NCBI GenBank assembly: GCA_964291315.2
Contig: OZ219752.1
Span: 288,001-352,000, forward strand
Direction: 5' to 3'
DNA length: 64,000 nt
From: Candidatus Poribacteria bacterium
GTDB lineage: Bacteria; Poribacteria; WGA-4E; WGA-3G
Under the pieces are notes generated by a model that worked only from the letters and a program-made list of their open reading frames with translations, ran no database searches and was not told the DNA's origin. Positions 11,178 to 55,508 of the stretch are shown one piece after another (within the stretch, counting starts at the first letter, position 1; each line of letters starts with the position of its first letter). The position numbers were made by a program, and so were the translations under genes.

Positions 11178-13586
11178 ATGCTTTATAAGGGGTTACAACT
11201 CGATCGCTTTCAAGAGTCCGCAATTTCTGCTATTAACCGAGATACTTCAGTGATTGTCACTGCTCCTACAGGTGCGGGCAAAACTGTCATCGCTGAGTAT
11301 GCCGTTGAAAAGTGCATCGAGGAGGACCACCGCGTTATCTACACGGCGCCAATCAAAGCGCTCAGTAATCAAAAATATCGGGATTTTTACGCTCAATATG
11401 GAGACAAAATCGGTATTGTTACCGGGGATGTAGTGCTAAATCCGTATGCCCAGGTGCTGTTGATGACCACCGAAGTTTTCCGGAATTCTATTTTTGATGA
11501 GATTGAACGCTTGCGGGATGTCTCTTACGTTGTCTTTGATGAAATCCACTATATTAATGATATTGCGCGCGGAACTGTCTGGGAAGAGAGTCTCATTTTT
11601 GCACCTCAACATATCAAATTTGTCTGTCTGAGTGCTACGATCCCGAACATCCGTTCTTTCACAAGATGGATGCAGAGCGTCCGGGATATAGACATCGAGA
11701 TAGTTGAAGAGTTAAACCGGCCTGTACCTTTAAAGCATCAGCTCTATTTTAAAGATTACGGTATCGGTAGTCTAAAGGATATACCACGTCTCCGGAATAT
11801 AGCCCGACGTAAGGTCCGGAAACGCAATGCTGATTCCGATGGTGAGAACCCCCCGTCTCTACCGCCTGACTTTATAGAGTCACGTCTTATTCCACATCTT
11901 CGCCGTGAAAGACACCTTCCGTGTCTCTATTTCTGTTTTAGTCGAAAGGGGTGCGAAGAAAACGCCAAAGCGCTCGTCCATGGATCGCAACTTCAGCTAC
12001 TTGAAAGAAGTCAACAGACCCAGATTTTAAACCGGTTTGACGAGCTTTGTGCCCAATTTGACATCGTAGAGGAAAAGAAAATTGCCCAATTTCGCAGATT
12101 GATCCGTTGTGGGATTGCCTATCATCATGCGGGGATGCTGCCCACACTCAAAGAGGTTGTAGAACGCTTGTTCACCTCTGGATTGATCCAACTCCTCTTT
12201 ACCACTGAAACTTTTGCTGTCGGTATTAATATGCCTGCCTGTTCTGTCGTCTTTGATAGTCTAAAAAAATATGATGGAATCGGATTTCGACCCCTCAAAG
12301 CACGGGAATATCACCAAATGTCCGGACGTGCCGGTAGACGCGGCATTGACCCTATCGGCTATGTCTATGCCCAGATTGTACCCGAATATGCTGATTCAGA
12401 AGAAATTCGAAGCGTTGTTGCTGATAAGATAGAGCCTATCGAAAGCCAATTTAATCTCTCCTATTCCAGTATTCTCAATCTTTATCAGAGATATGGAGAG
12501 GGGATTTACGATATCTATACGATGAGTCTGAGCAATCACCAAAACTACGTGCGTGTCGCAAAACTCAACAAAGAAATTGAGACCAAAACAGAGAAGCTCC
12601 AAGGGCTACCTGAGCCTGAGTGTATCCATGAGGGGATCAATGGAATCAAACAGATTGGGCAACATTATCGCCAAAATAGAGAGCGTGAAAAGGAACGTCA
12701 ACGTTTATACGCAGAGCGGGCGCAAATCAGATCCGAAATTCGAAAAAAGAGGCGGAAAAAAGCGCAAAATAAAAGATTAAAGGCAGTTCAACGAAAGATA
12801 AACCTGTTGCAGCGAAGAGCGGAGCCGAGCCTTTGTGATGCCTGTCAACACTTAAACACATGCACTACAAGATATAAAGCCATCCGGAAAGAGGAGGTGC
12901 GCCTCCAAAAACTCAAAGAGAGAACGACACGCATTGAAAACAACCCGATGGCGCAAATAATAGCTCGTCTCAGAGTACTTAAGGAATTAGGTTACATTGA
13001 AGCCGAAGCGCTGCTGCCGAGGGGCAGTACGGCTGCACACATTTCTGGATACGAGCTCGAATTAACCCAGCTCCTCCTTAACGGATTCTTTGAGAGACTG
13101 ACGGAAGATGAAATTAACTGCCTCATAGTCGCAATCGTCTCTGAACCGCGTAAAGATGGGTATTTTAAGCCCCTCAAGGATCCACACTTGTTGGAGGTCC
13201 TCTATGCCGTCAACTCCGAAATTTCGTTCATCCAATCTTTAGAGAATAAACACGGCGTGACAGAAATCACCCCTCTCTTGGAACTACGGTTTTGCACGGC
13301 GATGCTGGCCTGGAGCCGAGGGTGTCGCTTCGACATGCTTGAAAAGTATGCGCGCGTGGATGCTGGCGATTTTGTCCGAACCTTTCGGCTCGTCATCGAT
13401 CAACTCCGTCAAATGTGCCGTGCAATGAGTGGACACACCGCTCTAGTTGATAAGCTCAACCGATGTATTGAAAAAATCAATAGGGACGTTGTCGACGCGG
13501 AACGCCAATTACGGATTACACAAGAAAATCTTGATGAAGCAGACAGTAAGGCTGCTGAAGAGACGTTACGAAAAAAGGCATTGTAA
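11178..13586 (+). CDS. Ski2/HelY-like SF2 RNA helicase
   Basis: APTGAGKT, YTAPIKALSNQK, FDEIHY, LSATIPN, TETFAVGINMPA and QMSGRAGRRG; DSHCT-like C-terminus. Confidence 0.93.
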   Translation: MLYKGLQLDRFQESAISAINRDTSVIVTAPTGAGKTVIAEYAVEKCIEEDHRVIYTAPIKALSNQKYRDFYAQYGDKIGIVTGDVVLNPYAQVLLMTTEVFRNSIFDEIERLRDVSYVVFDEIHYINDIARGTVWEESLIFAPQHIKFVCLSATIPNIRSFTRWMQSVRDIDIEIVEELNRPVPLKHQLYFKDYGIGSLKDIPRLRNIARRKVRKRNADSDGENPPSLPPDFIESRLIPHLRRERHLPCLYFCFSRKGCEENAKALVHGSQLQLLERSQQTQILNRFDELCAQFDIVEEKKIAQFRRLIRCGIAYHHAGMLPTLKEVVERLFTSGLIQLLFTTETFAVGINMPACSVVFDSLKKYDGIGFRPLKAREYHQMSGRAGRRGIDPIGYVYAQIVPEYADSEEIRSVVADKIEPIESQFNLSYSSILNLYQRYGEGIYDIYTMSLSNHQNYVRVAKLNKEIETKTEKLQGLPEPECIHEGINGIKQIGQHYRQNREREKERQRLYAERAQIRSEIRKKRRKKAQNKRLKAVQRKINLLQRRAEPSLCDACQHLNTCTTRYKAIRKEEVRLQKLKERTTRIENNPMAQIIARLRVLKELGYIEAEALLPRGSTAAHISGYELELTQLLLNGFFERLTEDEINCLIVAIVSEPRKDGYFKPLKDPHLLEVLYAVNSEISFIQSLENKHGVTEITPLLELRFCTAMLAWSRGCRFDMLEKYARVDAGDFVRTFRLVIDQLRQMCRAMSGHTALVDKLNRCIEKINRDVVDAERQLRITQENLDEADSKAAEETLRKKAL

Positions 13587-13922
13587 TGAAAAACGAATTG
13601 TATTACAATAGAGCACTTGCACACGGTGCTGTTTTATGCTCAAAACCGCGTAAGTCCGAAACGATCGGATAGCCAAGCATATCCTTCGTTTGATTGAACG
13701 GGTGATTACAGTGAGCAGAGAGGCGATGTTGATTGTTAGTCAATTGCCGGCATTTAGTAAGAAGAGGCATCGTCGGGTTTCCAGCTCACAATCTACCAGC
13801 AGCTTGCAAGGTGTATAGAAAATGTTACACTTTCCGCGAAATTGTTTTTTTACAACAAAAAAAAAGAATGCGGATTAACCCGCTTATTCACTGTGTTTTC
13901 TGCCCATAACACCTCTACTCCT

Positions 13923-13944
13923 AATGTTACACCAGTGTAACATT
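13923..13944. promoter_or_regulatory. Perfect palindrome, candidate operator
   Basis: AATGTTACAC-CA-GTGTAACATT; a third identical half-site AATGTTACAC at 13821-13830. Confidence 0.55.
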
Positions 13945-14074
13945 TTTACACGGAGAATTCATTACGCCGGTCTAAGGATTTCTGCTAACATGTCACGTCA
14001 GCGATCGGATTTGCTTCTCGCCATAGGTTGACCTATAAAAGTATTACATATTATACATAAAACAGTGTTTTTCC

Positions 14075-14103
14075 TTGACAGAAACTATATTATCTCATAA
14101 ATT
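14075..14103 (+). promoter_or_regulatory. sigma70 promoter upstream of the paralog array
   Basis: TTGACA-N17-TAAATT, ~135 nt upstream of copy 1. Confidence 0.65.
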
Positions 14104-14237
14104 CTATTGTAGAGACACGCTGCGGTTTGCCTCGGTCTCCTGCTTCCGAGAGAACACGAAGAAGCGCACCGCTAGAGGCATTGTGAGTCTCACACATTAG
14201 CAATAAAGTCTAGTGGAGAAAAAAGGATAATAACATA

Positions 14238-14942
14238 GTGTTGAAGCAACTGTTATCAGACAAGCGTATTTTATGCGGTTTTATCTGTGTGTTGGTGCTG
14301 GTTGTTGGCGGCGTGGTATATGAGAGATCGGTGAAACAGCAAGCCCGCCGCGATATCCGACGCACTGAAAAGATCGTCAAAGAGAGGCAACGTCAGGAGA
14401 CCGGCTCTCAGCCCACAGAGAGTGGTCACTACCATTCGGATGGAACATATCACACAGGCTCACATGAAGCACCGGCCGGCACGACTGCCCCGTCAGAAGA
14501 GGGTAAGAAGAGCGGTATAGCTCCTGAGCGTGTGATATGGACAGGCAAGCCCCTGCGTGAGGTGTCCGCACCCGATCCGCTGAGTCCCGCGGAGCGCAAA
14601 GCACGCAATGCGAAGATCCAAGCACTCAATATACAGATACAGAAACTCAGAGGCGTAACAGAAGCAAAAACCGTCGAGTGTGATGAACGCATTAAGGCAT
14701 CTTCTAAAATCCTCAGGGAAAGGGAAGCAATCTCGGCAGAGCTGGACGCATTCCTCGTTGCAGAGGATCGCACTGCGGAAGAACAAGCACGCTTTGATGC
14801 ACTTTTAAAACAGTATTTAGAATTGCGCAACCTCTTTCATGAAAAGCACGCCATCGCTAAGCAAACGCTAGAAGAGAAGCGCACACTTCTTGAAAATCTC
14901 TATAGACTTGAAACGGATCGCGATGCGTTACGACGCCGATAA
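14238..14942 (+). CDS. Membrane-anchored His-motif coiled-coil protein, copy 1
   Basis: 234 aa; N-terminal TM, GHYHSDGTYHTGSH, Pro-rich linker, helical C-terminal half. Confidence 0.9.
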   Translation: MLKQLLSDKRILCGFICVLVLVVGGVVYERSVKQQARRDIRRTEKIVKERQRQETGSQPTESGHYHSDGTYHTGSHEAPAGTTAPSEEGKKSGIAPERVIWTGKPLREVSAPDPLSPAERKARNAKIQALNIQIQKLRGVTEAKTVECDERIKASSKILREREAISAELDAFLVAEDRTAEEQARFDALLKQYLELRNLFHEKHAIAKQTLEEKRTLLENLYRLETDRDALRRR

Positions 14943-14954
14943 GGAGGCATGTTG

Positions 14955-15002
14955 ATGAAGCACAGACGTATTGTAGTTGCAATAATATTAGGTTTGATGT
15001 AA
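14955..15002 (+). pseudogene. 15-codon stub MKHRRIVVAIILGLM* (vestigial signal-peptide start); also at 15760-15807, 16565-16612, 17368-17415 and 22859-22906
   Basis: GGAGG-N7-ATG begins 13 nt after the stop of the 234-aa gene, the same geometry as the start of the 1292-aa gene. Confidence 0.6.
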
Positions 15003-15042
15003 TGTAAAGTTTACGGACTTAACTGAAAAGGAGAAGGATGTA

Positions 15043-15747
15043 ATGTTGAAGCAACTTTTATCGGACAAGCGTATTTTAGGTGGGCTTATCTGTGTGTTGG
15101 TGTTGGTTGTTGCCGGCGTGGTATATGAGAGATCGGTGAAACGACAAGCCCGCCGGGATATACAGCGCCCTGAAAAGATCGTCAAAGAGAGGCAACCTCG
15201 GGAGACCGGCTCTCAGTCCGCAGAGAGTGGTCACTACCATTCGGATGGCACATATCACACAGGCTCACATGAAGCACCGGCCGACACGACTGCCCCGTCA
15301 GCAGAGGGTAAGAGGAGCCGTATAGCTCCGGGAGATGTGATATGGATGGGCAAGCCGCTGCGTGAAGTGTCAGCACCCGATCCGCTGAGTCCCGCAGAGC
15401 GCAACGCACGCAATGCGAAAATACAAACACTCAATACACAGATACAGAAACTCAAACGCATAACAGAAGCACAGACCAACGAGTGGTTGGAACACCTTAA
15501 AAAATATCCTAAAATCAGCCGAGAAAAAAGGGCAATCTTGGCTGAGAAGGATAAACTCCTCGCTGTAGAAGATTGGACTGCGGAAGAACGAGCCCGCTAT
15601 GACGCACTTTCAAAAAGGTTTGAAGAATTGAACGATCTAAGTGACAAAAGACGCGCTATCTCTGAGCAAATGCAGGAAGAGAACCTCCAGCTTCTTGAAA
15701 AGCGCGATGCCCTTGAAGCGGAACTGAGTGCCTTACGGCGCCGATAA
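15043..15747 (+). CDS. Membrane-anchored His-motif coiled-coil protein, copy 2
   Basis: 234-aa paralog with RBS (GGAG/AAGGA) upstream. Confidence 0.9.
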   Translation: MLKQLLSDKRILGGLICVLVLVVAGVVYERSVKRQARRDIQRPEKIVKERQPRETGSQSAESGHYHSDGTYHTGSHEAPADTTAPSAEGKRSRIAPGDVIWMGKPLREVSAPDPLSPAERNARNAKIQTLNTQIQKLKRITEAQTNEWLEHLKKYPKISREKRAILAEKDKLLAVEDWTAEERARYDALSKRFEELNDLSDKRRAISEQMQEENLQLLEKRDALEAELSALRRR

Positions 15748-15847
15748 GGAGGGATGTTGATGAAACACAGACGTATTGTAGTTGAAATAATATTAGGTTT
15801 GATGTAATGTAGCATTTACTAACTTAACTAAAAAGGAGAAGGATATA

Positions 15848-16552
15848 ATGTTAAAGCAATTGTTATCGGATAAGCGTATTTTATGCGGTTTTATCTGTGC
15901 TTTGGTGCTGGTTGTTACGTCGCTGGTGTATCAGGGATCTGTGAAACGGCAAGTCCACCGAGATATACAACGCACTGAAAAGATCGTCAAAGAGAGGCAA
16001 CGTCAGGAGACCGGCTCTCAGCCCACAGAGAATGGGCACTACCATTCGGATGGCACATATCACACAGGCTCACATGAAACACCGTCTGGCATGACTGCCC
16101 CGTCAAAAGAGGTTGAGAGGAGCGGTATAGCTCCTGAGAGTGTGATATGGACAGGCAAGCCGCTGCGTGAAGTGTCAGCACCCGATCCGCTGAGTCCTGC
16201 AGAGCGCAAGGCACGCAATGCGAAAATACAAGCACTCAATACTGAGATAAAGCAACTTGTGCGCGCAACGCGGGCACACATGCACAAGTATAATGAACAA
16301 GTTGACAAATATCCCAAAATCAGGCAAGAAATAAAGGCAATCTCGACAGAGTTGGACACTTTCCCCGCTGCAGAGGATCGCACTACGGAACAACAGACAC
16401 GCTATGACACCCTTTTAAAACGGTATTTAGAATTGGAGAACCTTGCTGACGAAGTTCTCACTATCGCAAATGAAATGCGGGAAGAGAGCCGCCAGCTTCT
16501 TGAAAATCTCGATCCACTTGAAACGGAGCTGAGTGCGTTACGGCGCCAATAA
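15848..16552 (+). CDS. Membrane-anchored His-motif coiled-coil protein, copy 3
   Basis: 234-aa paralog; identical to copy 6 after about residue 38. Confidence 0.9.
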   Translation: MLKQLLSDKRILCGFICALVLVVTSLVYQGSVKRQVHRDIQRTEKIVKERQRQETGSQPTENGHYHSDGTYHTGSHETPSGMTAPSKEVERSGIAPESVIWTGKPLREVSAPDPLSPAERKARNAKIQALNTEIKQLVRATRAHMHKYNEQVDKYPKIRQEIKAISTELDTFPAAEDRTTEQQTRYDTLLKRYLELENLADEVLTIANEMREESRQLLENLDPLETELSALRRQ

Positions 16553-16650
16553 GGAGGGATGTTGATGAAACACAGCCGTATTGTAGTTGAAATAATATTA
16601 GGTTTGATGTAGTCTATACTTCAGGAACTGAAAAGTAGGAGCATAACAAA

Positions 16651-17355
16651 GTGTTGAAGCGTCTATTATCAAACAAGCGGATTTTGGGTGTGGTTGTCTG
16701 TGCTTTAGTGCTGGTTGTTGCCGGCGTGGTATATGAGAGATCGGTGAAACAGCAAGCCCAACGCGATATCCGACGCACTGAAAAGATCGTCAAAGAGAGG
16801 CAACGTCAGGAGACCGGCTCTCAGTCCGCAGAGAGTGGTCACTACCATTCGGATGGCACATATCACACAGGCTCACATGAAGCACCGGCTGACACGACTG
16901 CCCCGTCAGAAGAGGTTGAGAAGAGCGGTATAGCTCCTGAGAGTGTGATATGGACGGGGAAGCCGTTGCGTGAGATTTCGGCACCCGATCCGCTGAGTCC
17001 CGCAGAGCGCAACGCACGCAATGCGAAAATACAAACACTCAATACACAGATACAGAAACTCAAACGCATAACAGAAGCACAGACCAACGAGTGGTTGGAA
17101 CACCTTAAAAAATATCCTAAAATCAGCCGAGAAAAAAAGGCAATCTCGGCAGAGCTGCGTGCACTCCGCGCTGCAGAGGATTGGACTGTGGAAGAACGAG
17201 CTCGCTATGATGCACTTTCAAAAAGGTTTGAAGAATTGGGCGATCTAATTGACAAAATTTTCTCCACCTCTGATCGGATGCAGGAAGAGAACCTCCAGCT
17301 TCTTGAAAAGCGCGATGCCCTTGAAGCGGAGCGCGATGCGCTGCGGCGCCGATAA
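16651..17355 (+). CDS. Membrane-anchored His-motif coiled-coil protein, copy 4
   Basis: 234-aa paralog; mosaic of blocks seen in copies 2, 5 and 7. Confidence 0.9.
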   Translation: MLKRLLSNKRILGVVVCALVLVVAGVVYERSVKQQAQRDIRRTEKIVKERQRQETGSQSAESGHYHSDGTYHTGSHEAPADTTAPSEEVEKSGIAPESVIWTGKPLREISAPDPLSPAERNARNAKIQTLNTQIQKLKRITEAQTNEWLEHLKKYPKISREKKAISAELRALRAAEDWTVEERARYDALSKRFEELGDLIDKIFSTSDRMQEENLQLLEKRDALEAERDALRRR

Positions 17356-17455
17356 GGCGGAATGTTGATGAAGCACAGACGTATTGTAGTTGAAATAATA
17401 TTAGGTTTGATGTAATGTAGAGTTTACGCACTTAACTAAAAAGGAGAAGGATATA

Positions 17456-18160
17456 ATGTTAAAGCAACTGTTATCAGACAAGCGTATTTTATGCGGTTTT
17501 ATCTGTGTGTTGGTGTTGGTTGTTGCCGGCGTGGTATATGAGAGATCGGTGAAACAGCAAGCCCAACGCGATATCCGACGCACTGAAAAGATCGTCAAAG
17601 AGAGGCAACATCGGGAGACTGGCTCTCAGTCCGCAGAGAATGGGCACTACCATTCGGATGGAACCTATCATACAGGATCACATGAAGCACCGGCAGACAC
17701 GACTGCGCCCTCAGGAGATGGTAAGAGGAGCAGTATAGCTCCTGAGCGTGTGATATGGACAGGGAAGCCGCTGCGTGAAGTGTCAGCACCCGATCCGCTG
17801 ACTCCCGCAGAGCGCAAAGCACGCAATGCGAAAATACAAGCACTCAATACACAGATACAGAAACTCAGACGCATAACACAAGCAAAAACCGTCGAGTGTG
17901 ATGAACGCATTAACGAAACTGATAAAACCCTCAGCGAAATCGATACAATCTCGGCAGAGCTGCGTGCACTCCACATTACAGAAGATTCGACTGCGGAAGA
18001 ACAAGCACGCCATGACGCACTTTTAAAACGGTATTTAGAACTGCACAACCTCGCCCGCGAAAGGAACGTCATCGCTAAGCAAACGCTAGAAGAGAAGCGC
18101 GCACTTCTTGAAAATCTCGATGCTCTTGAAGCGAAGCTTAGCGCTTTACGTGGTCGATAA
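17456..18160 (+). CDS. Membrane-anchored His-motif coiled-coil protein, copy 5
   Basis: 234-aa paralog directly upstream (12-nt gap) of the large Cys/His protein. Confidence 0.9.
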   Translation: MLKQLLSDKRILCGFICVLVLVVAGVVYERSVKQQAQRDIRRTEKIVKERQHRETGSQSAENGHYHSDGTYHTGSHEAPADTTAPSGDGKRSSIAPERVIWTGKPLREVSAPDPLTPAERKARNAKIQALNTQIQKLRRITQAKTVECDERINETDKTLSEIDTISAELRALHITEDSTAEEQARHDALLKRYLELHNLARERNVIAKQTLEEKRALLENLDALEAKLSALRGR

Positions 18161-18172
18161 GGAGGAATATCG

Positions 18173-21100
18173 ATGAACCGAAAATATACTGTAACCGTTT
18201 TTTTATGCGGTCTTTTTTGCCTCCACACAGTGGCGCTCGTGTTAGCTAACAATGAAGAGCGAACCCAATCGCAGAAAGATGCGGAAAGTAAATATGCCCA
18301 AGCACTTGATGGTTATCAAGACGCTCAAATTGCTAGGGGGAATGTTAAGATTGATGTTAGAGCTTTAGAAATAACTAGAGGATTGCTACAGAAGGAGATA
18401 AGTGATGAAAAGTTGGCAGCGTACGGTACGGTGCTCAACACGGCGGTGGCCTTGCTCACTGGGGCGTCTGCGGCGACCATAGCAACGAGAACGGCCGCAG
18501 CAATTGTCATTGGCAAGAGTGTTTCTGATATGGTCCGGACAATCCGTGACGCGCTGAAGGAGAATAAGAAAGCCACGCTTCATAAGTTGAAGCAAGGAAT
18601 GTATAACTTGGAGACAGAGCTAATAGAAAGGACGAAGGTGGTTCAAGATGAGGCAGCTGATGCTAACAGCGAGTTAGATGCTTGGAAAGCCGTAGAGCCC
18701 GGTGCGACGTATGACAAAAAGCCACTTGATGAACGGTATATTGATGTCGAAACAATGCATCCGGACTACACTCGGACGTTGCCGGATCCGCCGACGTATC
18801 GTTCCGACACGACGGAAACGATTGCGTGCCCTGCCTGTCGTGATCAGGTCAAGCCGCCATATTTGACAAAGATAGTGGTTTTATCCCCTGGTCTGATTAT
18901 GGGTATAGAGAAAACGGTCAAAAGGTATCGGGGTCATGAGGTCACGTGTGCAGAGACGCGTCACTCGACAGGCAAAGCGTGTGATGGTGAGTATTATAGT
19001 TGCTTGTCTCCGTATTCGAGTGCTTCCATAGTTTGCCCGAATGATGCGGATCACCGAGTTGTTGGCACGTGTGGTGAGCTCAAGGGCTCTAGGTTTAAGA
19101 AGCATGAGTATGCGAAGGGTTCGCCTGGGAATCATGGCAAGAAATTGAAGACTTGTGGTTCTATTGGTATGAGGTGGGAGCAATCCGATGGAACGGTCAC
19201 ACGGCAGGTATGTAAGATTAAGGTTTTTCCATGTGCGCCGGCGCATGGTCGGCATAATTGGGATCTGGTGTCTTTTAAGAAGCTATCACTGAATTTGGGT
19301 TCGGGCAGTAATTATATTTGTGCCAATTCCTCGTGTTCCATGAGCGGTAGCAGTTCATCGGGCGACGATGAAGACGACGAGGACGATACCGCTGACAATA
19401 CCCAGGGCGGTTCCGAATACGGTATGGGTATGGATGTGCGTTCGATAAACGGTAGCGGTTCGCCGAACGTCCCTCATCGAGAACAGGTTGCTCGAGCGTT
19501 AGCGTCTCGGGCGTGGAGAGCTTTACATTGGAACCACTCCGTCTCGCTAGGTATCTCTGCTGCACCGGAGCAGACTACCTCGCCGCTGAAGTTATCGTAT
19601 GAGCATCAGCGGGTGTGTTCAGAGGGGCATAAGTATTGGCTCTGTGATGCATCACAGAGGTTGGGGCATGCCCAATTGGTGTGTAGTCGTTCGGCGTGCG
19701 GGCAGGCGTTCACGCAGTGTTCTAACCACAGCTCAGCGTGTGTCGGGGGTTGGCATACCGGGGGTGCCGGTGATTTTTCCGAGACAGCAGATGCCTTGGC
19801 GGTGGTGTGTGGTAACCCGCACCGCAGGGATGGTGCGTGTGCATATGGGGGTCAGACCCCCTCGGTGAATGCTCATCGGACGACGTGTCTGGCAGGTCAT
19901 ACATATTGGTCGTGTAATGCGCAGGCGGTCCTAACGCATAGCAAACATACAGCCCGGCTTGTTACGTGTGGCAACTCGAACGCTGGGGAAGGAGCGTGTT
20001 CACAGGGGCGTCAAGCCGTCTCGTTGAATGCTCATCAGACGACGTGTCTGGCGGGTCATACATATTGGTCGTGTAATCCCGTGGCAAAACAGACGCATTC
20101 CTCTCACACCGCCTCATCCGGCGAAGGTACGGATGCTCCTAATACGGTTCCTGCTCGGGCTCCTGCACCTACTCCTGCGCGCCCTCCGACGGGAGATGGT
20201 GCGTGTGGCAACTCGAATGCTGGTGCGGGTGCGTGTTCTGTGGGAGGCAAGGCGCCGTCAGCGAATGCTCATCGGACGACGTGTCTGGCGGGTCATACGT
20301 ATTGGTCGTGTAATGCGCAGGCGGTTATAACGCATAGCCGACATACTGCGCCGCTTGTTGCGTGTGGCAACTCGAATGCTGGTGCGGGTGCGTGTTCACA
20401 GGGAGGCCGAGTCGTCTCGTTGAATGCTCATCAGGTTCGGTGTCTGGCGGGTCATACATATTGGTCGTGTAATCCCGTGGCAAAACAGACGCATTCCTCT
20501 CATACCGCCTCATCCGGCGAAAGTGCAAGTCTTTCTAAGATATCTTCTATGCTACTCCTGACGGGAGATGGTGCGTGTGGCAACTCGAATGCTGGGGATG
20601 GTGCGTGTTCTGCGGGAGGCAGGGCGCCGTCAGCGAATGCTCATCAGATTCGGTGTTTAGCAGGTCATACGTATTGGTCGTGTAATGCGCAGGCGGTTGT
20701 AATACATAGCCGACATACTGCGCCGCTTGTTGCGTGTGGCAACTCGAATGCTGGTGCGGGTGCGTGTTCTGCCGGAGGTCAAGCCGTCTCGTTGAATGCT
20801 CATCAGGCGCGATGTCTGGCGGGTCATACGTATTGGTCGTGTAATCCGTTAGCAAAACAGACGCATTCCTCTCATACCGCCTCATCCGGCGAAGGTACGG
20901 ATGCTCCTCATCTGGCTCCTGTGGCACCCGATCCTAAACCGTCTCGGGCGCCTGCACCTACTCCTGCGCGCCCTCCGACGGGAGATGTTGCGTGTGGCAA
21001 CTCGAATGCTGGTGCGGGAGCGTGTTCTGCGGGAGGCAGGGCGCCTTCAGCGAATGCTCATCAGGTTCGGTGTTTAGCGGGTCATACGTATTGGTCGTGT

Positions 21101-22051
21101 AATGCGCAGGCGGTTGTAAGGCATAGCCGACATACTGCGCCGCTTGTTGCGTGTGGCAACTCTAACGCTGGGGATGGTGCGTGTTCACAGGGAGGCCGAG
21201 CCGTCTCAGCCAATGCTCATCAGACGACTTGTTTAGCAGGTCATACATATTGGTCGTGTAATGCCCCATCGGTCCTAATGCATAGCAAACATACTGCCCC
21301 CGTGGTCTGTCCTGCGGATAGTTGGACGGATTGTGGTGGCACGGTATCACATGCGGCGACGTGTCCAGCGGGTCATTCGTATTACACGTGTAACTCATCG
21401 TCAGCGTCGACACATTCAGCACATACCGCTCCGCCGCCGCCACCCCCTCCGCCGGAGGATCCGGTTGTTTGTCCTGCGGATAGTTGGACGGATTGTGGTG
21501 GCACGGTATCGCATGCGGCGACGTGTCCAGCGGGTCATTCGTATTACACGTGTAACTCATCATCAGCGTCGACGCATTCAGCACATACCGCTCCGCCGCC
21601 GCCACCCCCTCCGCCGGAGGATCCGGTTGTTTGTCCTGCGGATAGTTGGACGGATTGTGGTGGCACGGTATCACATGCGGCGACTTGTGCGGCGGGTCAT
21701 TCGTATTATACGTGTAACTCATCGTCAGCGTCGACACATTCAGCACATACCGCTCCGCCGCCGCCACCCCCTCCGCCGGAGGATCCGGTTGTTTGTCCTG
21801 CGGATAGTTGGACGGATTGTGGTGGAAAGGTGTCACATGCGGCGACTTGTGAAGCTGGGCACGAGTATTATACATGTAACTCGTCAGCAGCTTCGGAACA
21901 TTCGGAACATACCGCTCCCGAACCGGCCTGCCCTGCAAGTAGTTGGACAGATTGTAGTGGGACCGGAACGGAGCATAAGGCGAAGTGTGGTAGAGGGCAT
22001 ACGTATTACACGTGCAATTCTTCGGCGCTTAAGAAACACTCCAAGCATTAG
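18173..22051 (+). CDS. Large secreted Cys/His-rich repeat protein (1292 aa) of unknown function
   Basis: RBS GGAGG; signal peptide (VLA|N); helical domain with a hydrophobic stretch; Cys/His-rich middle; acidic linker; 13 C4H4 modules. Confidence 0.9.
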   Translation: MNRKYTVTVFLCGLFCLHTVALVLANNEERTQSQKDAESKYAQALDGYQDAQIARGNVKIDVRALEITRGLLQKEISDEKLAAYGTVLNTAVALLTGASAATIATRTAAAIVIGKSVSDMVRTIRDALKENKKATLHKLKQGMYNLETELIERTKVVQDEAADANSELDAWKAVEPGATYDKKPLDERYIDVETMHPDYTRTLPDPPTYRSDTTETIACPACRDQVKPPYLTKIVVLSPGLIMGIEKTVKRYRGHEVTCAETRHSTGKACDGEYYSCLSPYSSASIVCPNDADHRVVGTCGELKGSRFKKHEYAKGSPGNHGKKLKTCGSIGMRWEQSDGTVTRQVCKIKVFPCAPAHGRHNWDLVSFKKLSLNLGSGSNYICANSSCSMSGSSSSGDDEDDEDDTADNTQGGSEYGMGMDVRSINGSGSPNVPHREQVARALASRAWRALHWNHSVSLGISAAPEQTTSPLKLSYEHQRVCSEGHKYWLCDASQRLGHAQLVCSRSACGQAFTQCSNHSSACVGGWHTGGAGDFSETADALAVVCGNPHRRDGACAYGGQTPSVNAHRTTCLAGHTYWSCNAQAVLTHSKHTARLVTCGNSNAGEGACSQGRQAVSLNAHQTTCLAGHTYWSCNPVAKQTHSSHTASSGEGTDAPNTVPARAPAPTPARPPTGDGACGNSNAGAGACSVGGKAPSANAHRTTCLAGHTYWSCNAQAVITHSRHTAPLVACGNSNAGAGACSQGGRVVSLNAHQVRCLAGHTYWSCNPVAKQTHSSHTASSGESASLSKISSMLLLTGDGACGNSNAGDGACSAGGRAPSANAHQIRCLAGHTYWSCNAQAVVIHSRHTAPLVACGNSNAGAGACSAGGQAVSLNAHQARCLAGHTYWSCNPLAKQTHSSHTASSGEGTDAPHLAPVAPDPKPSRAPAPTPARPPTGDVACGNSNAGAGACSAGGRAPSANAHQVRCLAGHTYWSCNAQAVVRHSRHTAPLVACGNSNAGDGACSQGGRAVSANAHQTTCLAGHTYWSCNAPSVLMHSKHTAPVVCPADSWTDCGGTVSHAATCPAGHSYYTCNSSSASTHSAHTAPPPPPPPPEDPVVCPADSWTDCGGTVSHAATCPAGHSYYTCNSSSASTHSAHTAPPPPPPPPEDPVVCPADSWTDCGGTVSHAATCAAGHSYYTCNSSSASTHSAHTAPPPPPPPPEDPVVCPADSWTDCGGKVSHAATCEAGHEYYTCNSSAASEHSEHTAPEPACPASSWTDCSGTGTEHKAKCGRGHTYYTCNSSALKKHSKH
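19808..21292 (+). repeat. Eight intragenic type-A modules C-x9-C-x11-H-x3-C-x3-H-x4-C-x7-H-x2-H, arranged as four pairs
   Basis: CLAGHTYWSCN occurs 8 times; Pro/Ala or Ser-rich linkers between pairs. Confidence 0.95.
21308..22048 (+). repeat. Five intragenic type-B modules (162-bp period, poly-Pro linkers)
   Basis: CPADSWTDC starts at 21308, 21470, 21632 and 21794, plus a divergent last copy; same H-x3-C-x3-H-x4-C-x7-H-x2-H core. Confidence 0.95.
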
Positions 22052-22064
22052 GCGATTTCTTTGA

Positions 22065-22098
22065 GAACAAAGCCTTGTTTTTCAGTAGGGCTTTGTTC
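22065..22098 (+). other. Stem-loop after the large gene (mRNA stabiliser or weak terminator)
   Basis: GAACAAAGCCTT...AGGGCTTTGTTC; no U-tract on the + strand. Confidence 0.5.
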
Positions 22099-22141
22099 AA
22101 AAGGAGGCAAAGCGAGTGCCTAATATTAAGGGGATGACGTA

Positions 22142-22846
22142 ATGTTGAGGCATCTATTATCAAACAAGCGGATTTTGGGTGTGGTTGTCTGTGCTTTAGT
22201 GCTGGTTGTTGCCGTCGTGGTGTATCAGGAAACGGTGAAACGGCAAGCTCACCGCGATATACAACGCACTGAAAAGATCGTCAAAGAGAGGCAACGTCAG
22301 GAGACCGGCTCTCAGCCCACAGAGAATGGGCACTACCATTCGGATGGCACATATCACACAGGCTCACATGAAACACCGTCTGGCATGACTGCCCCGTCAA
22401 AAGAGGTTGAGAGGAGCGGTATAGCTCCTGAGAGTGTGATATGGACAGGCAAGCCGCTGCGTGAAGTGTCAGCACCCGATCCGCTGAGTCCTGCAGAGCG
22501 CAAGGCACGCAATGCGAAAATACAAGCACTCAATACTGAGATAAAGCAACTTGTGCGCGCAACGCGGGCACACATGCACAAGTATAATGAACAAGTTGAC
22601 AAATATCCCAAAATCAGGCAAGAAATAAAGGCAATCTCGACAGAGTTGGACACTTTCCCCGCTGCAGAGGATCGCACTACGGAACAACAGACACGCTATG
22701 ACACCCTTTTAAAACGGTATTTAGAATTGGAGAACCTTGCTGACGAAGTTCTCACTATCGCAAATGAAATGCGGGAAGAGAGCCGCCAGCTTCTTGAAAA
22801 TCTCGATCCACTTGAAACGGAGCTGAGTGCGTTACGGCGCCAATAA
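22142..22846 (+). CDS. Membrane-anchored His-motif coiled-coil protein, copy 6
   Basis: 234-aa paralog. Confidence 0.9.
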   Translation: MLRHLLSNKRILGVVVCALVLVVAVVVYQETVKRQAHRDIQRTEKIVKERQRQETGSQPTENGHYHSDGTYHTGSHETPSGMTAPSKEVERSGIAPESVIWTGKPLREVSAPDPLSPAERKARNAKIQALNTEIKQLVRATRAHMHKYNEQVDKYPKIRQEIKAISTELDTFPAAEDRTTEQQTRYDTLLKRYLELENLADEVLTIANEMREESRQLLENLDPLETELSALRRQ

Positions 22847-23016
22847 GGAGGGATGTTGATGAAACACAGCCGTATTGTAGTTGAAATAATATTAGGTTTG
22901 ATGTAGTCTATACTTCAGGAACTGAAAAGTAGGAGCATAACAAAGTGTTGAAGCGTCTATTATCAAACAAGCGGATTTTGGGTGTGGTTGTCTGTGCTTT
23001 AGTGCTGGTTGTTGCC
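22256..23016 (+). repeat. 761-bp direct repeat identical to 15962-16722
   Basis: Offset 6294 bp; no mismatch found by eye. Confidence 0.9.
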
Positions 23017-23649
23017 TTCGTGGTGTATCAGGGATCAATGAAACAGCAAGCTCACCGCGATATCCGACGGACTGAAAAGAGCATCAAAGAGAGGCAACCT
23101 CGGGAGACTGGCTCTCGGTCTGCAGAGAGTGGGCACTACCATTCGGATGGGACATATCACACAGGCTCACATGAAACAACGTCTGGCACGACTGCTCCGT
23201 CAGCAGAGGGTAAGAGGAGCGGTATAGATCCTGAGCGTGTGATATGGACGGGCAAGCCGCTGCGTGAGGTGTCCGCACCCGATCCGCTGAGTCCAGCAGA
23301 GCGCAAGGCACGCAATGCGAAGATCCAAGCACTCAATACAGAGATCGAGCAACTCTGGCGCGTAATAGAGGCACAAACCGTCGAGTGGAATGAACACGTT
23401 GATAAATATCCTAAAATCAGCCGAGAAAGAAGAGCAATCTTAGCAGAGATGAACGCCCTCCCTACTGCACAGGATTGGACTGCGGAAGAACGAGCTCGCT
23501 ACAACGCACTTTCAAAAAGGTTTGAAGAATTGGACGATCTAAGTGACAAAATTTTCTCTACCTCTGATCGGATGCAGGAAGAGAATCGCCTGCTTCTTGA
23601 AAAGCGCGATGCCCTTGAAGCGGAGCTGAGTGCGTTACGGCGCCAATAA
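22945..23649 (+). CDS. Membrane-anchored His-motif coiled-coil protein, copy 7
   Basis: 234-aa paralog; the conserved spacer is absent after it. Confidence 0.9.
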   Translation: MLKRLLSNKRILGVVVCALVLVVAFVVYQGSMKQQAHRDIRRTEKSIKERQPRETGSRSAESGHYHSDGTYHTGSHETTSGTTAPSAEGKRSGIDPERVIWTGKPLREVSAPDPLSPAERKARNAKIQALNTEIEQLWRVIEAQTVEWNEHVDKYPKISRERRAILAEMNALPTAQDWTAEERARYNALSKRFEELDDLSDKIFSTSDRMQEENRLLLEKRDALEAELSALRRQ

Positions 23650-23706
23650 TAGTTGCGAACTACATCCTGATAACAACTATCTAATAACAAATTAAGGAGA
23701 ATATCC

Positions 23707-24267
23707 ATGGCTAATCAAGACTTCAATCTCACTGGTGCTATTAAAGTACGACCGGCTGAAGAAACCGATGCAGCTAATTTGCACATGTACTGCTTTCCTG
23801 AAAAAACCAAAAAGCAGGTCACTGAAGAGCTGAAAAACGATCTGAAAGCTGAAAATCAGACACACCGACTTGTTGCTGAATCGAGTGGATACCCTATTGG
23901 GCAGGTCACTGTCAAGCAAAACGTTGGTAACCCCGAGATCGCACAGGTTGGGAATCTTGCTGTTGCAGGGCCTTTTCGGCACTTCGGGGTCGCTAATTAC
24001 CTGATAGAGGCGGCTCAGGATGCTGCTGCAGCGAACGGTGTAAAATCGCTTCAAATAGAGTTATCCCCCTCCGATACGAGCGTTATTCAGCGGTATAAGG
24101 ACTGGGGGTTCTCCGAAAAACCGGTCGTTGTTCTCGAAAAGATACTCGGTGAATCAGAACCGGAGGCAGAGGAAGGAATACAGGTAGAGGCAGACGACAC
24201 CGACGAAGATGCCGAAGATGGAGCCTCAGCAGACGACGATGAACAACCCAGCCTGCTTGACTCCTAA
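23707..24267 (+). CDS. GNAT family acetyltransferase with acidic tail
   Basis: LAVAGPFRHFGVANYLI (acetyl-CoA loop) and YKDWGF. Confidence 0.85.
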   Translation: MANQDFNLTGAIKVRPAEETDAANLHMYCFPEKTKKQVTEELKNDLKAENQTHRLVAESSGYPIGQVTVKQNVGNPEIAQVGNLAVAGPFRHFGVANYLIEAAQDAAAANGVKSLQIELSPSDTSVIQRYKDWGFSEKPVVVLEKILGESEPEAEEGIQVEADDTDEDAEDGASADDDEQPSLLDS

Positions 24268-24282
24268 AAGGAGAATAGATTT

Positions 24283-25167
24283 ATGAACAGAATCTGGCTC
24301 CCGCTCCTCCTGGTCCTTTTTGTTGTCGGGTGCGGCACCCAAAACGAAAATCTTGCCAAGGGGAAGGAGTTGATTAAATCCGATAAACGCCGGAAAGAAG
24401 AACGGGCTGTTCGAGAATTTAAACTTGCACTCCAACAACCGATCGATAAGGCAGAATCACACTACCTGCTCGGACTTTACAATTCCCAGGAGTTTTACGA
24501 ACCGAATACCGCCGACCGGGAAGCGGCCTCAATCGCTGCGCGCGGGGGACACATGTTCCTTGCATATAAGGAAGAACCGCGTAAGTATCTTGAGATACTC
24601 ATTTTTGAGACGCTTCGCGATGACGATCTAGATATTCAAAACGTCGCGCTCGATGCTTTAACGCGCATATATAAAGAGGGCGATCGGAAACGACTGATCA
24701 GTCAACTTCAGAAGGCTATCAAATCCGGGGATAATCGCGATAGACACAGCGCACATTGGGTATTTGGACACCTCGGTAAGGAAGACCCCGGGGTGCTTGT
24801 CCCCATTTTGTTAGAACTGCTTGATCACGGCCGCGAAGAAACCCGCTTGAATGCCGTTAAGGCCCTTGGCGACATCGGGAGCGAAGAAGCAATTCCTGCC
24901 CTCGCTGCCCTGATTGACTCCGGCGCTGCTAGATGGAAACGCGACCGGGAGAAACCTGAAGTTCGTCAACTCGCTGTAGAAGCCCTCGGCAAAATCGGTG
25001 GTGCTGCTGTCCCAGAACTCATCAAAATTGTAGAGAATAAGGGGTCTTCGCTACGTGTCGACGCTATTCGCGCCTTAGCAACCCTCGGAGATGAAAAAGT
25101 CGTTGTGCCGCTCTTAGATGTTTTGAAAGAGCAGAGCAGCCGGGATGTGAGTATCCCCCTTAATTGA
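24283..25167 (+). CDS. HEAT-repeat lipoprotein
   Basis: Lipobox VVGC; repeats TRLNAVKALGDIG, VRQLAVEALGKIG and LRVDAIRALATLG. Confidence 0.85.
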   Translation: MNRIWLPLLLVLFVVGCGTQNENLAKGKELIKSDKRRKEERAVREFKLALQQPIDKAESHYLLGLYNSQEFYEPNTADREAASIAARGGHMFLAYKEEPRKYLEILIFETLRDDDLDIQNVALDALTRIYKEGDRKRLISQLQKAIKSGDNRDRHSAHWVFGHLGKEDPGVLVPILLELLDHGREETRLNAVKALGDIGSEEAIPALAALIDSGAARWKRDREKPEVRQLAVEALGKIGGAAVPELIKIVENKGSSLRVDAIRALATLGDEKVVVPLLDVLKEQSSRDVSIPLN

Positions 25168-25244
25168 AGGGACAGGCGTTATGGCACGCCCCGGGGCGCC
25201 TAATACCTTGATGAAACCTGCTATTCAATGGAAAGGACTGAAGT

Positions 25245-26696
25245 ATGGTAGGGAAAACAACACGCATGAAACAAATCTGCCGCTTCGCGGTTATTGTGCC
25301 CTTTTTCGCGCTTGTACTCGGACTGGTACTCGGATGTGACAACCGGTATTCCGATGAACGTTTGAAAATGGAGGTACAGCAGTTAGACAGTGACCTTATG
25401 AACCGTTGGGCAACAAGTGGTGTTATCGTTTTAAACACGACCCCCAACGGGCCGGCGAATAAGGCACAACTTGAACCTGGAGAACTGATCTCCTATGTCA
25501 TTGCGGAATATCCGGTCCAAAGCACAGACGACTTCAACAGGGCGCTCAAAAAAGCACTTGAGGGTGATAACAACCTCATTCTCTATTTGAAAGGCAAGCC
25601 ACCTATCCGTATTGCCCTTCGGAGACAAGGCGATAAGGTAGGCCTCAGCACTGAAGGAACGGGAACGGTGCGAGTCAAGGAAATTCAAGCTGGGACTCCT
25701 GCTGCAAATGCGGATATTCAGGTAGGCGATGTCGTTGAAAAAATTGTTGATGAGCGAAATATTTATGACCTTGCGGATTACAAAAAGACCTTGGGGAAAC
25801 TCTCCAAACACAAAATTACCTTCCGAACATCTGAATTAATAGGCGTGAAGATCGCTGCTGTGACGGCCCTTGGTGATTTGGGGGATGCCCGGGCGATTCA
25901 GCCGTTAATGGATCTCTTCAAAAATAGTGCAGAGTTCTCGGTTCGCAAAGCCGCCATCATCAGCCTGCAACGGCTCGTTGAATTAAGCATGCTGAACAAC
26001 CTTTTCCACGAATTTCAACGGGCGAATGTGAATCAGCTCCCCGCTGATAGTATGCATGTGAGCCAATTGGAATCTGCTGCTATCCTGGGCTTACTCACTG
26101 TTGATAGAGCCGGAAATACTGCTACACTCAAAGAGCCTTTCGGAACACAATTCAGACACAGGTCAGAAACACTCTATCGAGAAATCAACGGGGGACAGCT
26201 TGCTGAGATCGCGCAAGAATACATTCAGATGCATGTAGAGCCTGAACAAGAGATTCGGCGTGCGTGTCTCGCGATACTCGGAGTCCTCAAACCGGTTTCG
26301 GCAATTGAGGATCTCGTTGTTGTCCTCGAAAGCCCGTCAGAAATTCCCGGCATCCGTTTCCAAGCGGGACTTGCCCTCAGTCAGATTGGTGAGCCTGCTG
26401 TTGATGCGCTCATCGCGGTTTTTGAAAATAAAGATACCAGCACAAAAGATATCGCGGCTTCCGCCCTCGGCAGGATCGGTGGAACTAAGGCGCGAGATCG
26501 ATTGATTGATGAGCTTGAGACAACTCATCAACCTGCGATTCGACTAACGCTTGTTGACGCGATTTCCAAAATCGGTGATGCCCCGTCTATACGGGCACTT
26601 GAACGCCAACGTGAACGATACCAACAGAATGCTGATCCTGGCCTGCGTATCTTTCTAGATGAGGTTTTTAGAAACTTAGCCAGTGGATCCATGTAA
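25245..26696 (+). CDS. PDZ plus HEAT-repeat lipoprotein (start may be 25266)
   Basis: Lipobox-like VLGC; PNGPANKAQLEPGELI and AGTPAANADIQVGDVV (PDZ-like); HEAT repeats. Confidence 0.8.
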   Translation: MVGKTTRMKQICRFAVIVPFFALVLGLVLGCDNRYSDERLKMEVQQLDSDLMNRWATSGVIVLNTTPNGPANKAQLEPGELISYVIAEYPVQSTDDFNRALKKALEGDNNLILYLKGKPPIRIALRRQGDKVGLSTEGTGTVRVKEIQAGTPAANADIQVGDVVEKIVDERNIYDLADYKKTLGKLSKHKITFRTSELIGVKIAAVTALGDLGDARAIQPLMDLFKNSAEFSVRKAAIISLQRLVELSMLNNLFHEFQRANVNQLPADSMHVSQLESAAILGLLTVDRAGNTATLKEPFGTQFRHRSETLYREINGGQLAEIAQEYIQMHVEPEQEIRRACLAILGVLKPVSAIEDLVVVLESPSEIPGIRFQAGLALSQIGEPAVDALIAVFENKDTSTKDIAASALGRIGGTKARDRLIDELETTHQPAIRLTLVDAISKIGDAPSIRALERQRERYQQNADPGLRIFLDEVFRNLASGSM

Positions 26697-55200: not shown

Positions 55201-55508
55201 CACTGCCAGAGGTGCGTTGTTTTGCTTGCATCGGTGTAGATGATAATATGCTCATGCGCAGAGCGCGCCACCTGCTGCTGGATCTTCCGGCGCAGCGCAT
55301 ACTTGGGGAGTTGTCCGGCCGTGTCTGTTGCGTGGCATTCAAAGACGATCATGCCGCGTTTCTCTGCGACTGCGGAGAGGTGCCACTCGGTGGTGTCTAC
55401 GCTGATATTTAGCGCCTGTGTGTAGTGCTCCCACCCGAGTGCTTGGGTGAAGAGAGCGCTAAAGTTAGCAGCTCTGAGATATTCAAGGATTCGTTCTCGA
55501 TGAAGCAT
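52252..55508 (-). pseudogene. Eco57I-like gamma-class adenine methyltransferase, frameshifted at G9 (candidate phase-variable gene, OFF as sequenced)
   Basis: The 5' ORF has YLNGGIF, GAYYT and DPTCGSGAFL and stops at AGT-G9-TAA. The shifted frame continues VITDYHKWLDTHKPFHW...FDVIIGNPPY and stays open to 52252. Confidence 0.9.
53388..53396 (-). repeat. G9 homopolymer (C9 on +), candidate slipped-strand switch
   Basis: G10 or G7 would restore the frame. Confidence 0.85.

Follow-up and report, generated by a model that had tools for sequence, protein, structure and literature searches.

What keeps seven neighbouring genes at exactly the same length while one half of each of them varies strongly, and what could the varying half be for? 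The question is raised by a locus in a stretch of 64,000 nucleotides (nt) from a Candidatus Poribacteria bacterium (assembly GCA_964291315.2, contig OZ219752.1, positions 288,001 to 352,000 of the forward strand), which is called the window here and is numbered from its first letter. The locus comprises seven plus-strand open reading frames (ORFs), each of exactly 234 codons and spread over 14238-23649, and an ORF of 1292 amino acids (aa) with Cys/His repeats that interrupts the array between copies 5 and 6. We show that the array is a mosaic. The explanation we favour, at slightly better than even confidence, is a mosaic tandem expansion of a Poribacteria family of putative membrane anchors, in which the variable face of a C-terminal helical hairpin takes up the N-terminal helix of the 1292-aa protein, referred to below as the partner. 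The eight genes are arranged as follows:

14238-14942, plus strand: paralog 1, 234 aa, GTG start.
15043-15747, plus strand: paralog 2, 234 aa; nt 351-485 are common with copy 4, without a private change.
15848-16552, plus strand: paralog 3, 234 aa; the same as copy 6 from nt 115 onward.
16651-17355, plus strand: paralog 4, 234 aa, GTG start; the copy modelled with AlphaFold2.
17456-18160, plus strand: paralog 5, 234 aa; its stop lies 12 nt 5' of the partner gene start.
18173-22051, plus strand: partner gene, 1292 aa with 72 Cys and 72 His and a signal-peptide-like N-terminus.
22142-22846, plus strand: paralog 6, 234 aa.
22945-23649, plus strand: paralog 7, 234 aa, GTG start.

The start-to-start distances along the array are 805, 805, 803, 805, 4686 and 803 nt. 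A preliminary description had placed the beginning of the array at 14628, which falls inside copy 1 near the onset of its variable half, and had included the unrelated 1292-aa ORF in its span; the true start is 14238. Its statement that all copies have exactly 234 aa without any insertion or deletion was correct. Each of the seven units is an intact ORF of full length and has its own start codon and a purine-rich ribosome-binding site, and the coding sequences align without a gap at pairwise identities of 77.6-95.9% (nt) and 64-94% (aa). Of 702 nt columns, 259 vary and 173 are parsimony-informative, and the density of variable sites climbs sharply past nt 390, from 3-12 per 30 nt in nt 1-390 to 9-21 in nt 391-702. 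The proposed division into a conserved 5' and a variable 3' half therefore holds for the density of variable sites, but not for residues 1-36, which fall into two deeply diverged types (copies 1, 2, 3 and 5 versus 4, 6 and 7) with a between-type synonymous divergence (dS) of 0.35-0.91. Copies 3 and 6 show no difference from nt 115 (residue 39) through the stop, so that there are only six distinct hairpin versions.

Segmental exchange between the copies was supported by several tests. In our own implementation of the pairwise homoplasy index (PHI) test, 0 of 2000 permutations reached the observed value for all 702 nt, and 0 of 2000 for nt 1-390. A permutation test of the longest identical run flagged the copy pairs 3/6 (nt 120-701), 2/4 (nt 347-487) and 4/5 (nt 70-139), as well as 4/6 and 6/7 (nt 12-73) and others. 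Triplet run tests, which ask whether the lineage with private changes switches along the gene, gave 1/5000 for copies 2, 4 and 7, 0/5000 for copies 1, 5 and 4 and 0/5000 for copies 3, 7 and 4 within nt 391-702; the triplet 3, 7 and 2 was not significant (568/5000). Maximum-likelihood trees differ between gene segments, and no single tree explains all sites. In approximately unbiased (AU) tests nt 391-540 rejected the tree of nt 541-702 (p=0.011) and the converse comparison gave p=0.0011, while nt 1-114 rejected the trees of the other three segments (p<=2e-4) but not the whole-gene tree (p=0.06). The seven peptide blocks that the preliminary description had listed as shared in incompatible patterns were all recovered in exactly the named copies and at the same residue numbers, and by the PHI, identical-run and triplet tests this sharing goes beyond chance. 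The clearest single and most recent exchange is a tract of 761 nt that spans a gene boundary and occurs twice in the array:

15962-16722, plus strand: 761-nt identical tract, from copy 3 nt 115 via the spacer to copy 4 nt 72.
22256-23016, plus strand: its twin, from copy 6 nt 115 to copy 7 nt 72, letter-for-letter identical.

The two halves of the gene differ in age. Synonymous divergence amounts to about 0.20 for residues 37-130 and to 0.40 for residues 131-234, and the proportion of synonymous differences (pS) between hairpin alleles reaches 0.3-0.6. Because synonymous sites are also more diverged there, the variable half is older and not merely faster at the protein level. Conversion homogenises the younger 5' halves, whereas the hairpin segments are old alleles that have been kept and reassorted, not new variation. 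Where the preliminary description saw conversion as the generator of diversity, it is thus at least as much a homogeniser. The combinatorial library proposed there as an adaptive device stays conjectural for an array of seven germline copies. All four sequencing runs that were compared are made up of short contigs, with no listed piece reaching across the whole array. In one contig of run X4 a 5' part resembling copy 4 continues, over 157 shared letters, into a 3' part resembling copy 2, a short-read joint that is possibly chimeric; the contig-level joints X4 16980>15373, X2 14959>18251 and X4 16569>18602 are likewise possibly induced by repeats.

Divergence limited to the hairpin recurs independently, and more sharply, in a second species (genome G022). 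It carries two paralogous loci of about 5 kb (L019 4278-9137 versus L020) with different flanks, which are mostly 100% identical apart from a deletion of about 340 nt and sharp islands of 60-90% identity. These islands cover the hairpins of both anchor genes, part of one anchor N-terminus and partner codons 95-194. For one anchor pair we counted 0 differences in codons 1-120 and 1 in codons 121-150, followed in codons 151-210 by a proportion of nonsynonymous differences (pN) of 0.26-0.30 and a pS of 0.30-0.42. Since the synonymous sites jump as well, the boundary is the product of recombination between old alleles.

To learn about the protein itself, we modelled copy 4 with AlphaFold2 using an alignment of 21 sequences (mean predicted local distance difference test score, pLDDT, 78). 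The model contains a long N-terminal helix (residues 9-55), a small beta-hairpin at a His motif (residues 63-65 and 71-73), a disordered linker (76-106) and an antiparallel hairpin in which the helices 117-152 and 154-173 pack against 180-233 (pLDDT 89-98 in this block). The predicted protein accordingly has four parts. A signal-anchor helix at the N-terminus is followed by the invariant His loop (G-H-x-H-x-D-G-x-x-H-x-x-x-H-E), by a disordered linker and by a C-terminal two-helix hairpin of about 117 residues. The protein would sit in the membrane with its C-terminus outside. A Foldseek search of the PDB returned nothing at E<=1e-3, only generic long hairpins. In relatives from other species with 29-41% identity the hairpin aligns with single-residue gaps only, which makes its fixed length a constraint and not merely a sign of recent duplication. 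The fixed-length helical hairpin proposed in the preliminary description is therefore supported both by the model and by the alignment to relatives.

The partner gene follows copy 5 directly. Its product has a helical N-domain, which includes a hydrophobic stretch rich in Ala, Gly and Thr (residues 85-115), and beyond it a Cys-rich region, an acidic linker and a set of 14 Cys/His modules. Each module of about 53 residues holds four Cys and four His in the pattern C-x7-C ... H-x3-C-x2-G-H-x-Y-[WY]-x-C-x7-H-x2-H, and among the modules are four 162-nt repeats that are almost the same in sequence, as well as four double modules, 372-417 nt long. The protein had no sequence match in Pfam, NCBIfam or the PDB, and an AlphaFold2 model of a Cys/His double module reached a mean pLDDT of 46 with no confident fold. 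Homologs of its first 400 residues occur in 3 of 65 genomes of the genus, each time immediately after an anchor gene. G022 encodes the N-domain and the repeat part in two separate genes.

A predicted complex supports, but does not demonstrate, binding between hairpin and partner. We modelled a single pair, the copy 5 hairpin (residues 105-234) with residues 27-215 of the adjacent partner, and obtained a score of 0.87 compared with 0.59 for the best of three controls. Such a mark was reached by 58 of 80 solved complexes and by 2 of 110 mismatched pairs, counts that apply here only roughly because the pair was modelled with our own shallow alignments. Three runs shared at least 84% of their contacts, with a partner pLDDT of at least 85, and in the model a partner helix (about residues 35-70) runs along one face of the hairpin. 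We then located the variability of the seven copies with the help of the helix boundaries, the core positions from other species and the contact list of the complex. At the 33 predicted contact residues the mean pairwise difference was 0.60, compared with 0.31 at the other 78 helical residues (p=3.7e-6); within residues 135-220 the values were 0.62 for contacts and 0.38 for the others (p=5e-4). The expectation of the preliminary description that the variable residues would map to one face was thus borne out.

Estimates of the ratio of nonsynonymous to synonymous change (omega) vary along the gene. By Nei-Gojobori counting on three independent pairs (1-5, 2-4 and 3-7) with a codon bootstrap, the values and 95% confidence intervals (CI) were:

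Residues 2-130: omega 0.30 (95% CI 0.18-0.48).
Residues 131-234: omega 0.77 (95% CI 0.54-1.09).
Residues 131-180: omega 1.18 (95% CI 0.71-2.15).
Residues 181-234: omega 0.56 (95% CI 0.35-0.91).

With core positions defined as those that are hydrophobic in five relatives from other genomes, omega was 0.29 at core and 0.75 at other helical positions, and 1.35 (0.83-2.71) at the non-core positions of residues 131-173. The core and the length of the hairpin are conserved while one face varies. Our own codon-model fit (M0, M1a and M2a; F3x4; six sequences; segment-specific trees) was evaluated by a likelihood-ratio test (LRT) of M2a against M1a:

Codons 131-180: M0 omega 1.37; LRT 11.0, p=0.004; 53% of sites at omega 3.1.
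Codons 181-234: M0 omega 0.79; LRT 9.3, p=0.009; 14% of sites at omega 5.1.
Codons 39-130 (control): M0 omega 0.47; LRT 0.4, p=0.83; no class with omega>1.

Of the 15 sites in the omega>1 class, 10 are predicted contact residues (hypergeometric p=0.003). None of 22 simulations under the fitted M1a null for codons 131-180 exceeded an LRT of 4.3. When 40% of the codons were drawn from the other tree, however, 1 of 15 null simulations reached the observed statistic, with an LRT of 12.2, and the real data for codons 131-180 gave an inflated LRT of 15.0 on a wrong tree. Positive selection is therefore suggested and not established. The diversifying selection held likely in the preliminary description stands in that omega is not uniformly below 1 and that M2a is preferred in both hairpin halves with a clean control region; it is weakened by the mixed-tree simulation and by the counting CI, which includes 1.

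Searches for relatives place the seven genes in an unannotated family that is almost confined to Poribacteria records. The source genome (4.4 Mb, 4 contigs) holds just these seven close copies; in a search of 5.8 billion proteins the six clusters of the window itself were the only ones returned, and a search of public genome records with copy 4 as query found no relative. Distant matches, mostly to residues 1-90, were present in 13 of 24 genomes of the same genus, and none of 16 genomes from other families of the order matched the paralogs. With the G022 family member as query we found 45 loci in public genome records, 43 of them titled Candidatus or uncultured Poribacteria. In an alignment of 21 members G63, H64, H66, D68 and H72 are invariant and H76 and E77 are kept in 90% or more; the invariant G-H-x-H-x-D ... 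H motif sits after the hydrophobic N-terminal helix, and the sequence beyond it is unrelated in many members. A profile of this alignment matched 523 representative clusters at E<=1e-3 and 303 at E<=1e-10 (1.84 billion proteins). The window's hairpin type was found in 4 of 65 genus genomes, with seven copies here, three in G022, one in G049 and one weak match in G058. The array is best described as a species- or lineage-specific tandem expansion.

Neither the paralogs nor the family scored above the cut-off of any Pfam or NCBIfam model, none of six relative clusters that we looked up carried a named annotation, an ESM Atlas search was uninformative (top score 0.75) and PADLOC returned only weak coiled-coil noise from SMC-like arms. 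Among the papers listed by literature searches on Poribacteria there was none on the family. The family, its gene pairing and its His loop are hence not described in the literature searched or in the libraries Pfam, NCBIfam and PADLOC. A second array exists in the same genome (locus L095; G000 contig C4, 1672000-1690500), in which seven ORFs of 252-262 aa with a related N-terminal anchor and no His motif are interleaved with ORFs of 115-359 aa, some of which have N-terminal hydrophobic stretches.

The pairing with a downstream gene is common in the family. In 36 of the 45 relative loci the anchor gene is followed within 300 nt by an ORF on the same strand, and 32 of these 36 ORFs begin with a signal-peptide-like sequence. 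At least 3% Cys was found in 23 of the 36, compared with 57 of 364 background ORFs. Judged from these sequences, family genes are as a rule followed by a gene for a secreted and mostly Cys-rich protein. On the other side of the anchor gene, the relative loci L022, L023, L025 and L069 have, at a distance of a few hundred nt, an upstream gene whose product of about 200 aa resembles an extracytoplasmic function (ECF) sigma factor by eye.

The spacers of the array may carry traces of this pairing. A small ORF of 15 codons with a strong ribosome-binding site lies in every spacer after copies 1-4 and 6, and its TAAGGAGG context and offset match those of the partner gene start:

14955-15002, plus strand: 15-codon ORF after copy 1.
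15760-15807, plus strand: 15-codon ORF after copy 2.
16565-16612, plus strand: 15-codon ORF after copy 3.
17368-17415, plus strand: 15-codon ORF after copy 4.
22859-22906, plus strand: 15-codon ORF after copy 6.
14075-14103, plus strand: sigma-70-like promoter match (10/12), about 135 nt upstream of copy 1.

The encoded peptide is basic and then hydrophobic, like the start of the partner, a likeness judged by eye. On this by-eye reading the small ORFs may be relics of the 5' end of the partner gene (its signal peptide) within the 805-nt duplication unit; alternatively, each may be a real small gene. The match at 14075-14103 is a possible array promoter, a weak call because 14 promoter-like sites were found compared with 10.8 (sd 3.4) in shuffled sequence. 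An Rfam scan of 13000-24500 gave 0 matches at E<=0.1.

The invariant His loop offers a second hint at function. The family profile matches the PDB chains 5w56/5w57 and 6xpn, which represent one protein, with E=0.0076 and 0.011 (19-20 bits), and the alignment sets the invariant H64, H66 and H72 on the three His of the AztC D-loop. According to PMC7463823, 5W57 is the wild-type AztC of Paracoccus denitrificans and 6XPN a loop-deletion mutant; the flexible D-loop spans residues 117-133, and the loop and each of its three His are described there as essential for zinc transfer from AztD. The likeness between the two loops could be convergent. A metal-handling loop would fit beside a partner with 72 Cys and 72 His.

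Taken together, we propose that the array grew by unequal crossing-over of an 805-nt unit that would comprise the anchor gene together with ~50 nt from the 5' end of the partner gene. On the hairpin, the variable face would form a groove for the amphipathic N-terminal helix of the partner (about residues 35-70), giving a three-helix bundle, and through this uptake the anchor would act as a tether or chaperone for the partner on the outer side of the inner membrane. Binding specificity or affinity would differ among the six versions of the hairpin, and the His loop might handle zinc for the Cys/His modules. Several observations weigh against this proposal. The genome has one partner gene with this N-domain, facing six hairpin versions with strongly different contact residues. 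The G022 paralogous loci differ in their hairpins, yet their partner codons 1-94, which cover the contact helix, are identical, and this disfavours a tight lock-and-key co-evolution. Two of the complex controls scored 0.59 and 0.56, which indicates that helical proteins dock readily in this model. The AztC match covers a stretch of about 20 residues at borderline E-values, and a Lys/Arg-rich stretch right after the anchor helix is unusual for exported segments. As to the mosaic, the PHI test on nt 391-702 alone was not significant (148/2000), and the partitions for the AU and codon tests were picked after the data had been seen.

Neutral redundancy is the first alternative to this proposal, and we think it not very likely. 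After tandem duplication one copy, probably copy 5 beside the partner gene, would still bind the partner, and the others would drift at exposed coiled-coil positions. Conversion would do no more than even out the 5' halves and now and then patch a 3' half, and the mosaic would be a by-product. Such a view agrees with the single partner gene and with the counting estimates for residues 131-234 (0.77, 0.54-1.09) and 131-180 (1.18, 0.71-2.15), and it gains from the behaviour of the M2a statistic, which was reached in 1 of 15 mixed-tree nulls and rose on the wrong tree (14.98 versus 11.0). Drifting copies are harder to reconcile with seven intact ORFs that have retained start codons and ribosome-binding sites without an indel in 702 nt despite a synonymous divergence of 0.2-0.6, or with purifying selection on the core positions of all copies (omega 0.29). 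Moreover, M2a is preferred over M1a for each half of the hairpin and not for the control region, none of the 22 simple null simulations approached the value observed, and hairpin-limited divergence is also seen in G022. A different role for the same contact, which we judge distinctly unlikely, is an immunity-like repertoire. The secreted partner would be membrane-active or harmful in some other way and would pass between neighbouring cells in the sponge; the hairpins would neutralise it by clamping its N-domain, and the extra copies would act as orphan neutralisers against variants from other strains, as orphan immunity arrays do in bacteriocin loci. Tandem, small and divergent binders adjoin one large secreted protein here, they vary mainly at the predicted contact face, putative relics of the gene next door lie at each unit boundary, the partner has the Ala/Gly/Thr-rich hydrophobic stretch at residues 85-115, and variant versions turn up in related strains from other runs of that study, all as this idea would have it. 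It meets an obstacle in the partner, in which Pfam, NCBIfam, PADLOC and PDB sequence searches detected no toxin domain and whose counterparts across the family are very diverse. It also leaves the invariant His loop without a role. In most toxin-immunity pairs the immunity gene lies downstream of the toxin gene, and here the anchor gene is upstream of the partner.

Programmed variation of the pilE/pilS or vlsE type, in which silent cassettes feed one expressed gene at high frequency, is very improbable. Segmental mosaicism is indeed present, and the X4 contig joins a copy-4-like 5' to a copy-2-like 3' part. The array consists, however, of seven complete genes with no single expression site and no truncated cassettes, its hairpin alleles are old (pS 0.3-0.6), and the X4 joint is that of a short-read contig across a repeat, which can be chimeric. 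We give equally little credence to an assembly artefact, or to strain alleles collapsed into one array. A perfect twin tract of 761 nt is unusual and no listed contig of the four runs spans the array; on the other hand, the genome is assembled in 4 contigs, run X1 has depth in 30 of 30 bins, and 7 of its 8 listed pieces have 0 other letters and the eighth has 3. Unit spacing and reading frames are regular, and an analogous array structure stands in different flanks in G022. Two further candidates were rejected. Mutagenesis by a diversity-generating retroelement (DGR) is excluded because 60 of the 159 variable columns in nt 391-702 have no A in any copy; a Pfam scan of 44 window ORFs found no reverse transcriptase family. 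A membrane-spanning anti-sigma factor came into question because of the ECF-sigma-like genes upstream in some relatives, but the anchor does not fit one, as its hydrophobic helix begins at about residue 11 and leaves no room for an N-terminal cytoplasmic sigma-binding domain.

Uptake of the partner helix by the variable face, the reading we prefer, has a bolder extension that we regard as unlikely: a specificity code. Each membrane-anchored hairpin adaptor of the family would fit the N-terminal helix of its own secreted protein, rich in Cys and His and probably zinc-loaded, and the array would be a repertoire of alternative specificities that selection keeps diverse and gene conversion reassorts. 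If true, the code could serve in the sorting of several cargo proteins, or in the recognition or neutralisation of variants from neighbouring strains in the sponge, and would then amount to a molecularly new type of self/non-self system. Most lineage-specific genes of the Poribacteria, which are uncultured symbionts of sponges, have no assigned role, and the locus defines a sizeable family (the 523 clusters above) whose architecture is clear, whose gene partner is conserved and for which a contact surface is predicted. It also provides a clean bacterial example of a gene in which conversion homogenises one half, and the other half retains old alleles that are reassorted. Evolutionary patterns of this kind are familiar from other systems; what makes the locus interesting is the new family and the role it may have, and not a new principle.

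The rest of the window consists of ordinary chromosomal housekeeping genes, and no transposase or phage gene was found among the 44 ORFs scanned. The following genes were noted on either side of the array:

8811-10214, minus strand: ORF fusing a DNA methylase domain (N6_N4_Mtase) with HEAT repeats.
23707-24267: GNAT acetyltransferase, just past the array.
24283-26696: two HEAT-repeat proteins with hydrophobic N-termini, one with a PDZ domain, after the GNAT acetyltransferase.
42488-43444: second N6_N4 methylase.
53385-55508: ORF with a weak match to the MmeI methyltransferase domain (31 bits, cut-off 27).

Parts of this locus resemble known systems. Like pilE/pilS of Neisseria and vlsE of Borrelia, the array is made of tandem homologous units that exchange segments and so become mosaic. 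In those two systems a single expression site draws on partial cassettes without promoters, and here there are seven complete genes. Orphan immunity arrays of colicin, contact-dependent inhibition (CDI) and Rhs loci combine divergence focused on the binding interface with neighbour-gene fragments at the unit boundaries. The array would share both features, has the same arrangement of tandem small divergent binders by a large secreted protein, and departs from them in that no toxin domain was found, the binder gene lies upstream, and a conserved His loop and a membrane anchor are present. Only the overall shape of the hairpin recalls the receptor-binding hairpin of colicin E2/E3 (2ysu_B), p85 iSH2 and STAT5, which took the top Foldseek ranks with 10-18% identity and none at E<=1e-3, and we take this as a generic fold resemblance. 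Similarly, the likeness to AztC/ZnuA is limited to the alignment of the invariant His loop with the AztC D-loop: the rest of the anchor protein is unrelated and lacks the two-lobed solute-binding fold, since the model shows helices and one small beta-hairpin, and Pfam and NCBIfam gave no solute-binding family. Streptococcal M and M-like proteins (emm/mrp/enn) form parallel coiled-coil dimers, vary in their number of repeats and are fixed to the wall by a C-terminal LPXTG anchor. The anchor proteins differ from them in forming a predicted antiparallel intramolecular hairpin of fixed length with an N-terminal membrane anchor; the paralogs end in ...ALRR[RQ] without LPXTG and have no Pfam match. 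Like the M proteins, however, they would be coiled-coil proteins of the cell surface, and in both cases the heptad core is kept, the exposed residues are hypervariable and neighbouring paralogs swap segments.

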